DNA from: Shigella phage SfII
Strand: one strand, 5' to 3'
Sequence record: NC_021857.1
Length of the DNA: 41,475 nucleotides
Of this stretch, positions 36,001-41,475 are shown piece by piece (the first letter of the stretch is position 1; every line of letters starts with the position of its first letter). Made by a program: the position numbers.

Positions 36001-39000
36001 AAATAAATCTTTGACAGGGATTTTTAATAGAATGAAAAGTACTGCTGTGATAGAAGTAAGTAGAATTGGTGCTACCCAATCATATGCAGCTTTGCCGCTA
36101 ATACCTTTAATAAAAAGATATCCAAACGGCTTGCCTAGATGAGAGAAAACTGAAAGTATTGGCATAATAACCTCACATCAAATCTATCATTTTCACAACA
36201 AACTCTAGCTCAATTTTAACATATGAATCCTTCAGGCGCGAATTAAAGTTATCGATAATGCTTTTCTTAATAAATGTTTTTTCTAAATTATTAAGATTGA
36301 TGTTTGAGGTTTTGAAATCAACCTGCCTTGGTTTATTTGTTTCAGGATCTTGGAATTTAACCTTTAATTTATCATAACCACCATTCATTTTTTTATTGAA
36401 ATGAGATGCTACATTTTTAATCCATCCAATAACATTGTCACCATGATTTGGAAGTAATTTTAATGTACTTTCAGTCGGAATGTAAGGTGAGTTAACATCA
36501 GGAGCATTAATTGTTCCGAATTGATCCTTGACTAATATGACATCTGATAATCCTTTTTGGCTTATTTTATTAAAAAGCTCCTTGTCTAACATTCCTGTAA
36601 ATTCAAATATTGGTTTGTATCGTATTTTTACTTCTTTTTTTGATGTTGCAGAAATAACGTTAGTTGGATGTTTTGCGGTAAATAAGTCTTCATTGTCTTT
36701 CGCCACTTCAAAGAGAATTTTGTCTAAAAAACTATTTAACCGGGCCGTAGATACACCTGGGGTAGATGTACAAATCATATCATAGGTTCTTTTATTTCCA
36801 TTTAATGATATGACAACATAGGTAGAAACTTCATAGCCTTCACCTTGTTCATATTTTGGTTGGATTTCAACGCGTTCATTAGTATTTATATTTTTTACAA
36901 CGGTAGTACTTCCATTTTTATCAACACTATTAATAAGAAGGACAATATGCGTGGGTGAGTTATCTGGAAGTAAAGGATAAAGTTGTACATCTTGGAGAGT
37001 AACTACAATATTCCCAGAATCATATGAATGAACGAGTCCCTTTTGTTTAACAATCAATGGGGCAAGCATGTACATTTCCGGAACAGGACATATACACTGG
37101 GCTTTTACCTCTTGTGTTGCCTTGGTTCTAAACTTTGTGTCAATGGTCAGACTATGATGAGTAACGAGTCTTTCGCTAGCATTTAATTTTGCCATGAAAT
37201 CATCCGATTATGATTTTTCGATTTATTTGTTAATCTTACAAAAACGCTAACGCGTACGCAAAAATTATTGTATCGTGTTAAGAGTGGTTACTTCGCCACA
37301 CAGCTTAAACCCGCCGTCGAGCGGGTTTTGTCGTTTCTGGGGCTGGGGATTCGTTGGTCCTGGTCTATTCCGCAGTTATCCATTGGTTCGGCTTCTTTGA
37401 CGTTTCCGCTTCTAATTTGCTGTACATGATGTTCCCTCAATTTGCACCTGCTGTATCAGCGAGGTGAGAGATAACTACAAATGCCTCATAACCCAAATAC
37501 CTGGCTGGAGTTGTTCCAGAGCTGGTGGCGTGGAGACACACCGCTGGGCGCAGTGATTATGTCGATCGTTATGGCTGGCTTGCGCATTGCCTATTTTGGC
37601 GGTGGTGGTGGCTGGAAACGAAAAACGCTCGAGATTTTGCTCTGTGGTGCTCTGACGCTGACTTTTGCATCCGCTCTTGAGTATGTCGGATGGCCTAAAT
37701 CTCTTTCTGTTGCCATTGGTGGCGGTGTTGGGCTGATTGGTGTCGATGCAATTCGTGGGGCTGCAATGCGAGTAATCGGTAACAAATTTGGTAGCTCGAA
37801 GGAGTAATTTATGCAGGCACTAAATTCCCAGCGTAAAGCTTTCTTGGATATGGTTGCATGGTCAGAAGGAACGGATAACGGGCGACAACCGACACGTAAC
37901 CACGGTTATGATGTCATTGTCGGTGGTGAACTGTTTACTGATTACTCCGATCATCCTCGCAAACTTGTCACGCTAAACCCGAAACTCAAATCAACAGCAG
38001 CCGGACGTTACCAGCTTCTTTCCCGTTGGTGGGATGCCTACCGCAAGCAGCTAGGGCTGAAAGACTTCTCTCCCAGAAGCCAGGACTCCGTGGCATTACA
38101 GCAGATTAAAGAGCGTGGCGCTTTACCGATGATTGATCGCGGTGATATCCGTCAGGCAATCGACCGTTGCAGCAATATCTGGGCTTCACTGCCGGGCGCT
38201 GGTTATGGTCAGTATGAACATAAAATCGGTGACCTGATTGCCAGGTTTAAAGAGGCTGGTGGGGTGGTAAATGAAGTTGAGCTATAAGCTGATTATCGCT
38301 GCTTTCCTTTTAACTGTCGTCTGTTCTTTCATCTGGTCAACCAACCACTACTACAGCAAATATCAGCACGAAAAGAAACGTGCTGATGAGGCTGTACAAA
38401 ATGCCAAATCGGCAACTGCCATTACTAATAACGTCCTGCAATCACTACAAATCGTCAATACAGTACTGGAGGCTAACCAGCATGCAAAACAGCAGATCGC
38501 ACTGGAGTCACAGAGAACCCAGGCTGATATCAAAATGGCTTTTGCGAATGATGATTGCGCTGCCCGTCCTGTTCCTGCTCGTGCAGCTGAACGGCTGCGC
38601 CGGTACGCGGACAGTTTACGTACCAGTTTCGGCGGTACCACTACTAGCGAATCTGACCGCTGAAACTCCGCAACCAGCTATCCCCGACCCGCTGACATGG
38701 AGTGGGAGCCTGGATTTGAACGTAAGCCTGTTGTCGGCGCTGGCGTCTTGTAATAGGGATAAGTTAGACATTAGAAAGAGTGAGCACCTGCTTTCGGAGA
38801 AAAACTCTGCTGAAAAGTGAGGTTATATAGCTAGATCGGAATTGGCGATTCATATATCGGAAATAGTTGGTTAAGAATTTTCTGGAATGATTGTATGCTT
38901 TTACAACCTATATCGAAGTTCATGTTGGATGAATTTTATGCAAAACGTACAGCCGCTATCTCTGGTAACTACTTTAGTAATTTTGAGGTCTAATGGAGAG

Positions 39001-41475
39001 TCAAAGTCGTTAGGTACTGGGTTCTTTTATCAACATAGCAATGGTTTCATTTTCCTTGCAACTAACTATCATGTAATAACTGGAATCAGCCCATCCGAAA
39101 TGAAGTGGTCAACAAAAACTGGCCACCGAGTTAGAGTTTTTCCAGTATCGATTTTCCGATTCGTTTGGGGGTAACCCACCGTTATATTCGTGCGGTCTTA
39201 GTGCACTGTAATATCCCACGATATAGTCCGTTATGGCGTGAGCTGCCTCGCTGAAGCTTACGTAACCCACCACCGGCATCCATTCGTTCTTCAGACTCCT
39301 GAAGAAGCGTTCCATTGGGCTGTTATCCCAGCAGTTTCCGCGCCGGCTCATACTCTGTCTGATCTGGTATCGCCACAATAACTGCCCGGAACTGCCTGCT
39401 CGTATAATGACTGCCCTGATCGCTGTGGAACATCACCCCGCCGGGCTTACCACGGGTTTCCCATGCCATTTCCAGCGCTTTCATGGTGAGCCTGCTGTCC
39501 GGCGAGAACGACATGGCCCAGCCCACTGGTTTTCTTGCGAACAGGTCGAGAACAACGGCGAGGTACGCCCAGCGCTTACCCGTCCAGATATAGGTCACAT
39601 CACCGCACCACACCTGATTTGGCTCGGTCACGGCGAACTGCCTTTCAAGGTAGTTAGGGATAGCAACATGTTCATGACCACCACGTTTATACCGGTGAGT
39701 CGGCTGCTGACAGCTGACCAGCCCCAGCTCTTTCATGAGCCTGCCAGCAAGCCAGCGTCCCATCTGGTAGCCTCTCCGGGTTGCCATTGTGGCGATGCTT
39801 CTTGCTCCGGCCGAACCGTGGCTGATGCCATGTAGCTCAAGTACCTGACTGCGTAATACAGCCCGTCTGCCGTCTGGTTTTTCAGGACGGTTTTTCCAGT
39901 ATCTGTAGCTGCTGCGATGAACCCCGAACACATGGCAGAGTGTGACCATAGGATAATGCGCTCTGAGTTTCCCGATTATCGAGAACTGTTCAGGGAGTCT
40001 GACATCAAGAGCGCGGTAGCCTTTTTTAATATTTCATTCTCCATTTCAATGCGTTGTAGCTTTTTCCTGAGCTCACGGATTTCAATTTGTTCCGGGGTAA
40101 TGGGGGAGGCTTTTGGTGTTTTGCCCTGACGCTCATCACGCAGTTGTTTGACCCATCTTGTCATTGTGGAAAGGCCAACATCCATAGCTTTGGCGGCATC
40201 TGCCACCGTGTATTTCTGGTCAACAACCAGTTGAGCGGATTCGCGTTTAAACTCTGCGCTAAAATTTCTTTTTTTCATTGGAGCACCTGTGTTGTTCTGA
40301 GGTGAGCATATCACCTCTGTTCAGGTGGCCAAATTCAGTGTGCCACTTCAAGGGGTGTAAAGCCATTTATAGGCGATAGTATTGATATTCAGCTGAGAGA
40401 TAAAACCGGAAAACTATTCAAACATACGATGCCTCTGTTTAAAGATGGTTCACCGCTGTGGTTGGAGCACCCCACAGATAAAGAGGCAGACATTATCTTG
40501 ATGCCTTTGCCTCAAGAGTTGTTTGTAAACACAGGAGTAAAAGTAGTCTCAAAAACAACGACACTGCCTAATGTCCAGATAAACCCCTCATCTCCTGTTG
40601 TAATGATTGGATATCCTCATGGTTATCATGACACGACTCACTACCTTCCAATATGGAAAACAGGAAGCTTAGCGAGTGAGCCAGATATCGATTTCGATGG
40701 GAAGAAATTAATAGTTGTCGATATTTCTGCTTTCCCTGGAATGTCAGGCTCTCCGGCATTCTATGTCACACACAGTGGTTATCTTACAAAAGAAGGGAAT
40801 ATGATCATGGATATGGGAATGAAAATTCATTTCCTTGGCGTTTATGCAAGTATGCAAATGCTAAACAGTGATCTTTTCTTAGAACAAGTCGTTAGTGCTG
40901 CAGAATACAAAGTGTCGCATAGTGAATCTTTGCAACTAGGGCATGTCTGGAAAGCTGAGTTACTTGAAGAGATAGCTGCGACATCTAGTCCGATTGCAAC
41001 CACACCATCTCAATTTCAAAGTAATAGCAAATTCTTATTTAAGTACTGAGATACGTCTACACATAAACCGCCTGTTGGAGGTTTTTATGCATATCGTGCG
41101 AGCAGTATCAGAGAGAATATTTCAATGCCACCACGAACACCAAAAGCCTGCCGTGTTCGCGGCTGCCGATCGACAACCACAGACCCGTCAGGTTATTGCA
41201 AGCAACACAAAGGCGAAGGCTGGAAGCAATACAAGCCAGGACAATCCCGTCATCAGCGCGGTTATGGTTCGAAGTGGGACGTTATCCGCGCGCGTGTGCT
41301 GAAGCGTGACAAAGGCCTGTGTCAGTTGTGTTTGCGTGCCGGTGTGGTGCGCGAGGCGAAAACCGTTGACCACATCATTCCTAAAGCGCATGGCGGCACT
41401 GATGCCGACCGTAATCTGCAGAGTCTGTGCTGGCCGTGTCATAAGGCGAAGACGGCCCGTGAACGGTTGAAGTGA

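Follow-up and report, generated by a model that had tools for sequence, protein, structure and literature searches.

The end of the Shigella phage SfII genome raises the question of what gene once lay between its spanin genes and the HNH endonuclease gene that precedes the packaging functions. In the sequence record NC_021857.1 (the window, here meaning the whole 41,475-nucleotide stretch that was analyzed), two open reading frames (ORFs) at this junction flank a copy of the insertion sequence (IS) IS911, and a sequence-only reading had proposed that both belong to a single trypsin-like serine protease gene, carried as accessory cargo and inactivated by the insertion. The analysis described here confirms that the two pieces are the halves of one 286-codon gene, and an IS911-inactivated serine protease cargo gene is a near-certain structural account of the locus. 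What the intact protein does is a separate matter, for which we put forward a tentative proposal below. The features of the locus are as follows.

38271-38663, plus strand, spanin gene Rz
38482-38820, plus strand, embedded Rz1/LysC gene
38821-38937, plus strand, AT-rich intergenic stretch separating Rz1 from the protease gene; scans detected neither a sigma-70 consensus promoter nor a terminator in it
38938-39099, plus strand, 5' piece of the protease gene, codons 1 to 54 (MQNVQ...ISPSE), including His45 (from the homologue-supported start, the ORF list, and alignment)
39100, no strand, single duplicated A, the sole target-site duplication (from alignment to three intact alleles)
39101-40350, minus strand, IS911 (IS3 family), 1,250 bp, with TG...CA termini (from its ends, its ORFs, and comparison with phage Sf6)
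39323-39949 and 39109-39378, minus strand, orfB of IS911, split in two by an extra C near 39385
39976-40314, minus strand, orfA of IS911
40351-41049, plus strand, 3' piece of the protease gene, codons 55 to 286 and TGA, including Asp101 and Ser186 (from the ORF list and alignment)
41050-41124, plus strand, spacer to the HNH gene, with a weak, degenerate hairpin at about 41066-41087 that is not significant
41125-41475, plus strand, HNH endonuclease gene, preceding cos and the terminase genes

The split gene and its insertion element

In the ORF list, the upstream piece appears as an ORF of 95 amino acids (aa) at 38887-39174 and the downstream piece as an ORF of 206 aa at 40429-41049, both on the plus strand and both in frame 1, and the downstream frame stays open back to 40351. 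Joining 39099 to 40351 yields one open frame, and joining 39100 to 40351 yields a frameshift. The single frame foreseen from the sequence was therefore found, at a length shorter than the 300 or so codons first estimated: the likely start is the ATG at 38938 (MQNVQ...), giving 286 aa and matching the RefSeq coding sequence start in three intact Escherichia coli genomes. The in-frame ATG at 38887 would add an upstream extension that homologues do not use, and the enteric homologues all begin M-Q/K/E-N-V.

When the joined flanks were compared by megablast with 5,426 complete E. coli genomes, the uninterrupted gene was recovered from three chromosomes (strains TW10828, MS1679, and H1827/12) at 99.8% nucleotide identity, and the same intact allele is present, in the same context, in six IMG/VR prophage contigs and one Logan contig. 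The gene order around the intact allele (Rz/Rz1, protease, HNH, P27-family small terminase) is identical to that in SfII. Alignment with the three intact alleles leaves SfII with exactly two differences: an additional A at the junction and, at 40770, a synonymous substitution (ACA versus ACG, both Thr). The reconstructed SfII protein is 100% identical in amino acid sequence to RefSeq WP_228178886.1 (“S1 family peptidase,” 286 aa), which is encoded without interruption in SfII-like E. coli prophages (locus QMY51_RS07475 in TW10828), whereas the SfII copy carries IS911 and the extra A between codons 54 and 55. Because the uninterrupted E. coli copies align with only these two differences, the reconstructed protease is evidently a real allele and not a chance match of frames, and because the intact alleles run colinear across the junction, the two SfII pieces are halves of one gene.

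This arrangement also bears on the state of the gene. IS911 parts His45 from Asp101 and Ser186, so that neither fragment can be catalytically active, and the longest stand-alone ORF of the 3' piece (40429-41049) lacks the catalytic His. The proposed inactivation in SfII is thus borne out. Since the SfII gene shows no other decay and, apart from the insertion, differs by a single silent base, the insertion is recent.

The element begins with TGAAGTGG at 39101 and ends with CCACTTCA at 40350, and the break in the protease gene falls exactly at these ends, as had been read from the sequence. The terminal inverted repeats are imperfect, the first 8 bases of both termini match exactly, and the element shares 99.7% identity with the IS911 annotated in phage Sf6. 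At the insertion point the intact allele has CCGAAAGGGG, where SfII reads CCGAAA, then IS911, then AGGGG; at the junction of protease gene and IS911, CAGCCCATCCGAAA is followed directly by TGAAGTGGTC. One base is duplicated around the element (A, 39100 and 40351) in place of the expected 3 bp. The earlier statement that no flanking direct repeat is visible thus holds for a 3-bp repeat and misses the single A. Such a 1-bp duplication is atypical; it might have arisen from an AAA duplication that later lost two A's, from an irregular staggered cut, or from a miscount of the A run during sequencing. Two other origins for the locus, namely a pair of unrelated gene fragments and a deletion between two IS copies, were considered and rejected, the flanks being exactly contiguous in the intact alleles, as expected for a simple insertion.

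The IS911 copy itself is not intact. An additional C near 39385, absent from the Sf6 copy, divides orfB into ORFs of 208 and 89 aa. With orfB split, the SfII element probably cannot make an OrfAB transposase of its own and is probably transposition-defective in cis, unless the C is an artifact; an error in the Sanger assembly of 2013 could account for it. The variant is rare among E. coli copies: the 61-bp stretch with the extra C has a match of at least 99% in only 4 of 4,618 E. coli records, and the listed best matches cover 60 bases of the record for the 61-base query. The parallel with Sf6 is close, in that the same element interrupts a nonessential gene (ninG) of a viable temperate phage of S. 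flexneri, but the Sf6 copy has a canonical 3-bp AAC duplication and an intact orfB, in contrast to the 1-bp duplication and +1 frameshifted orfB of SfII. Exact-product look-ups with the 206-aa 3' ORF and with the 78-aa and 95-aa 5' read-through ORFs did not find the same insertion elsewhere, and a 27-mer across the left junction had no exact match in GTDB species representatives or IMG/VR; since Shigella genomes are sparse in these collections and short-read assemblies are interrupted at IS copies, uniqueness of the insertion is not implied.

A predicted chymotrypsin-like protease in a cargo slot

The three residues expected of a serine protease can all be located in the reconstructed protein. 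His45 (codon 39070-39072, motif TNYHV) lies in the 5' piece, and Asp101 (codon 40489-40491, motif EAD) and Ser186 (codon 40744-40746, motif PGMSGSP) lie in the 3' piece, in keeping with the catalytic His region and GMSGSP motif that the sequence-only reading had assigned to the two pieces. All three are invariant, in the order His-Asp-Ser, in an alignment of 28 sequences reaching down to 39% identity, and the alignment also reveals two invariant blocks specific to the family, LPIWKTG-x-ASE and SLQLGHVWK. In all, 54 positions, including the full triad, are invariant across phyla at 39 to 48% identity. The sole Pfam domain is Trypsin_2 (PF13365), which matches residues 43 to 208 with a score of 34.7 bits against a gathering cut-off of 27.6 (E = 3.7e-8). 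The protein also matches PHROG 7688, a family of unknown function (E = 7e-112), and no NCBIfam model matches it. Among 5.8 billion proteins we found 285 relatives, nearly all of them 280 to 313 aa long with Trypsin_2 as their single domain, and PF13365 was present in all 120 listed homologues. They come from Enterobacteriaceae and, at 40 to 48% identity, from Nitrospira, Desulfobulbus, Geothermobacter, Bacteroidota, and Chloroflexota.

An AlphaFold2 model built from the 28-sequence alignment (mean predicted local distance difference test [pLDDT] score, 78) has the double beta-barrel fold, and its Foldseek matches include RsgI9-S1C, foot-and-mouth disease virus 3C, DegS/DegQ, and chymase. The fold assignment rests on this model because a search of the PDB by sequence gave nothing significant, the weak matches being to staphylococcal exfoliative toxin B (E = 0.027). 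On this basis, the protein is predicted to be a divergent clan-PA serine protease of chymotrypsin fold that consists of the catalytic domain alone. The protease domain fills the 286 aa; no PDZ domain, other additional domain, or signal peptide was found in the SfII-type protein, and because it has no signal peptide it is presumably cytoplasmic. Membership in the HtrA/DegP/DegS group (MEROPS S1C) was rejected, since the protein has neither a PDZ domain nor an export signal. Identity to HtrA/DegS protease domains is only 16 to 19%, and the SfII protein further differs from them in having no membrane anchor, in its own motifs LPIWKTG and SLQLGHVWK, and in an extended beta-hairpin predicted in the model at residues 211 to 255.

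Two parts of the family vary at their ends. Alleles from enteric prophages have a C-terminal extension of about 20 aa (residues ~265 to 286, ~40980-41046 in SfII) that is missing from the environmental homologues; it ends aromatic-basic-aromatic (FKF, MRF, FKY), was modeled by AlphaFold2 with low confidence (alignment columns 301 to 342), and could be a regulatory or docking tail. At the other end, about 17 of the 120 homologues carry hydrophobic N-terminal extensions of 25 to 35 aa that resemble signal peptides or transmembrane segments (P0049, P0054, P0065, P0066, P0080, P0094, P0095, P0099, P0102, P0105 to P0108, P0112 to P0114, and P0120). These sequences are mainly environmental, Bacteroidota-like and metagenomic, and the extension stops right before the usual start Met. 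Either some members of the family are exported or their starts have been called too far upstream.

Comparison with related phages shows that the protease gene sits where its relatives have little or nothing. Homology with SfV breaks off within Rz1, near 38743, and picks up again near 41115, ten bases ahead of the HNH gene, where homology with SfI and SfIV likewise resumes. The gap between Rz1 and the HNH gene is 26 bp in SfV, 291 bp in SfIV, and 2,304 bp in SfII (1,054 bp without the IS), and the protease gene is absent from SfV, SfI, and SfIV. The GC content averages about 0.40 in the protease gene and about 0.50 in its flanks; it is 0.36 to 0.42 in the protease pieces, mostly 0.46 to 0.55 in the lysis genes, and 0.57 in the HNH gene. 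The published cos lies at bp 59 to 125 (PMC3772137).

The same slot holds other versions of the gene. In E. coli, a 50% identical allele (P0037, with entries in 586 index blocks) takes exactly this position in prophages whose flanking holin, endolysin, HNH, and TerS proteins are 94 to 99% identical to those of SfII. Because so divergent a protease sits between such similar neighbors, the P0037 allele represents a cassette replacement and not gradual divergence. Across unrelated enteric prophages, this position between lysis and packaging genes is filled by alleles that are 50 to 70% identical. In prophages of Serratia and other enteric bacteria a homologue follows the spanin gene and precedes the packaging genes despite different holins, endolysins, and terminase types, some of these slots hold further cargo beside it, and in a P2-like prophage the homologue adjoins the lysis genes at the prophage end. 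The near-empty SfV junction, the drop in GC content, and the sharing of the slot with unrelated lysis and terminase genes together argue that the protease gene is horizontally acquired accessory cargo, as had been suggested from its position alone. SfII was induced from S. flexneri 2a strain NCTC 4, tested for plaque formation and host range, and sequenced from phage DNA (PMC3772137). Because SfII is inducible, infective, and viable with the gene split, the protease gene is dispensable for the phage life cycle.

The term “moron” applies to this gene in some respects. It is an extra gene between genes that are adjacent in relatives, and its base composition is unlike that of its flanks. Two divergent alleles (L004 and L033) have a terminator-like GC hairpin and T run directly 3' of the gene; the SfII sequence, like its uninterrupted E. 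coli counterpart, has only a weak hairpin there, which in SfII is no better than in shuffled sequences (z = -0.32). In the strict sense, which calls for a promoter and a terminator of the gene's own, it may be a moron only in part. Of the original description as a moron in a bor/lom-type cargo position, then, the accessory cargo stands, a promoter of the gene's own was not found, and nothing supports an envelope or virulence role like that of bor and lom.

Candidate roles of the intact protein

Our favored proposal, tentative and rated at or a little short of an even chance, is that the intact protein may be an antiphage protease of the superinfection or abortive-infection type that protects the lysogen and belongs to the candidate defense family PDC-S45. 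As the protein has no sensor domain, the protease would itself have to supply the specificity. It might cleave a protein of the incoming phage directly, or a phage product might switch it on so that it cleaves an essential host protein, and on either scheme the IS911 knockout would leave SfII lysogens without the exclusion function of the protease. The second scheme has a functional analogue in Lit of the e14 prophage, a zinc metalloprotease that causes abortive infection by cleaving EF-Tu when a phage peptide appears. Lit, like the SfII-type protease, is a single-protein protease encoded by a prophage; the analogy is one of function, as the metalloprotease has no homology to the SfII-type serine protease.

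The proposal starts from a match of the protein to the PADLOC hidden Markov model (HMM) for PDC-S45 (E = 1.5e-40, 137 bits), in which residues 5 to 264 align with profile positions 18 to 281 of 293. Other PADLOC matches, to PDC-M35A and to protease-type LmuA, are weak. The PDC families are 145 phage defense candidates that were predicted by Payne et al. through guilt-by-embedding in known defense systems (bioRxiv 10.1101/2024.01.29.577857). The likeness to PDC-S45 lies in a stand-alone Trypsin_2 protein, found in defense-type neighborhoods, with a full-length HMM match; the differences are that the family is a prediction and that the SfII copy is a pseudogene.

Gene neighborhoods in six nonidentical contexts were examined. 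In Desulfobulbus, a same-strand DUF3644 gene (PDC-S19) lies about 65 bp past the end of the protease gene (L013 8001-9918), and in Geothermobacter a HEPN RiboL-PSP gene follows at the same distance of about 65 bp, also on the same strand (L050 7001-8655). In Nitrospira the next gene, for a 211-aa protein of unknown function, is followed by genes for a TIR protein (PDC-S66/ThsB-like) and an HNH nuclease (restriction endonuclease-like), and in Bacteroidota the neighbors are genes for a type II methyltransferase and for a partner of 765 aa, as well as ParE toxin-antitoxin genes. The Desulfobulbus and Geothermobacter pairs hint that, beyond the enteric prophages, the protease may form two-gene modules whose partners can be exchanged. 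The nonprophage neighborhoods as a whole agree with the PDC-S45 defense lead, and SfII itself carries a second candidate pair, PDC-M53A/B, in its other cargo slot.

A number of observations weigh against this proposal. Scans of SfII and of the intact E. coli allele found no sigma-70 consensus promoter upstream of the gene, and the gene is co-directional with the late operon, so that its expression in the lysogen is presumptive. Protease activity is itself predicted, no recognizable sensor or regulatory domain was found in the protein, and the N-terminally extended homologues fit poorly with a purely cytoplasmic abortive-infection model and caution against assuming one mechanism for the whole family. 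In the literature on PDC-S45 we found no experimental paper, the role being predicted only, and in that on stand-alone trypsin-like defense proteins only multicomponent systems were found (trypsin-MBL, Avs2, ietAS, and Lamassu). Finally, a tblastn search with the intact protein had no match in 50,697 deposited phage genomes, and studied phages therefore offer no phenotype; the survey of relatives rests on prophage and metagenome collections.

Some of the same observations would suit the main rival explanation, a late-expressed protease that serves the lytic cycle, its gene being read from the Q-dependent late promoter along with those for lysis and packaging. Its targets might be host immune proteins, as in counterdefense, or envelope or lysis-related proteins, and its loss might be costly in some hosts only. 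The gene directly follows the late operon in the same orientation, with no promoter of its own detected and no terminator between it and Rz1; it adjoins lysis genes in both lambdoid and P2-like prophages; and its dispensability in SfII is what accessory lytic functions often show. We nevertheless consider this role rather unlikely, given that homologues with 40 to 48% identity occur outside prophages, beside restriction-modification, TIR, HEPN, and toxin-antitoxin genes and away from any lysis genes, and that the gene is missing from SfV, SfI, and SfIV as well as from the deposited phage genomes. An envelope target is made unlikely by the absence of a signal peptide, and the terminator-like hairpins that follow the gene in other alleles suggest a self-contained cassette. 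The passenger status of the gene might alternatively be complete, in that a selfish or neutral gene in a permissive recombination hotspot would benefit neither phage nor host and its loss from SfII would be inconsequential. The rarity of the exact allele (3 of 5,426 complete E. coli genomes), the ease with which the gene is lost, and the fact that no partner gene is conserved would all fit, but the conservation of the triad and the other invariant positions at 39 to 48% identity points to sustained purifying selection on an active enzyme, and the diverged P0037 allele is widespread in E. coli. We therefore regard a neutral passenger as improbable.

Least probable of all, and by our estimate very improbable, is a role in virulence or lysogenic conversion, with the protease directed at the bacterial surface or an animal host in the manner of lambda bor and lom. 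The map position is that of bor in lambda, SfII is a serotype-converting phage of a pathogen, and the weak PDB sequence matches are to exfoliative toxin B. Those matches, however, are nonsignificant and reflect a shared fold only, no signal peptide, lipobox, or secretion signal was found in the enteric alleles, and the family extends to environmental Nitrospira, Desulfobulbus, Bacteroidota, and Chloroflexota. Returning to the antiphage proposal, a broader form of it would make the PDC-S45-type protease a sensor-less, single-protein immune effector that is carried as an exchangeable cassette at the lysis-to-packaging junction, the alleles with 50 to 70% identity being specificity variants of an arms race. 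The enzyme itself would recognize a phage protein or be activated by one, and SfII lysogens would be missing an exclusion function conferred by sibling prophages. This extension is more doubtful than the proposal itself.

Annotation, a second cargo slot, and the natural knockout pair

The gtr/int region of the window is 100% identical to the partial SfII record AF021347. The SfII genome announcement (PMC3772137, KC736978) assigns SfII_55 and SfII_56 to transposases, enters SfII_57 as a “hypothetical protein unique to SfII,” and does not mention a split protease. SfII_55 and SfII_56 are probably one IS911, and SfII_57 is probably the 3' half of the disrupted serine protease gene. Already known are the generic RefSeq annotation of the protein, the PADLOC candidate listing, and the presence of IS911 in nonessential genes of Shigella phages (ninG in Sf6). 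What appears to be new is that the SfII IS911 and SfII_57 probably mark a disrupted protease gene, together with the exact anatomy of the junction and the use of the slot as an exchange site for the cassette.

Elsewhere in the window, three further features were noted.

35581-37195, minus strand, candidate pair PDC-M53A/B, encoding proteins of 340 and 194 aa, located between the genes for antiterminator Q and holin, GC content about 0.29 to 0.36
20308-21498, plus strand, DDE_Tnp_1 transposase gene, 396 aa, a second mobile element
18806-19855, minus strand, Acyl_transf_3 acyltransferase gene, 349 aa, adjoining the DDE_Tnp_1 gene, just upstream of the gtrII cluster

The products of the 340-aa and 194-aa genes match PDC-M53A/B, a two-gene candidate in PADLOC, at E = 2e-32 and 3e-54, as well as PHROGs of unknown function, and the genes are probably SfII_49 and SfII_50 of the announcement, also described there as “hypothetical proteins unique to SfII.” In relatives, the slot between Q and holin holds a DNA methyltransferase gene (SfV) or genes for a 406-aa protein and an NA37 protein (E. 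coli L004). Two cargo slots thus flank the SfII lysis cassette, each with a candidate defense module, PDC-M53A/B being intact and PDC-S45 dead. The DDE_Tnp_1 transposase and the acyltransferase are presumably SfII_26 and SfII_25.

As it stands, the locus is a well-behaved case of an accessory gene disrupted by an IS; a sensor-less immune protease, if that is what the intact gene encodes, would be of real interest. SfII and the E. coli strains TW10828, MS1679, and H1827/12 form a clean natural pair of knockout and intact alleles, one silent base apart, and this pair could be used to test a widespread single-gene defense candidate.

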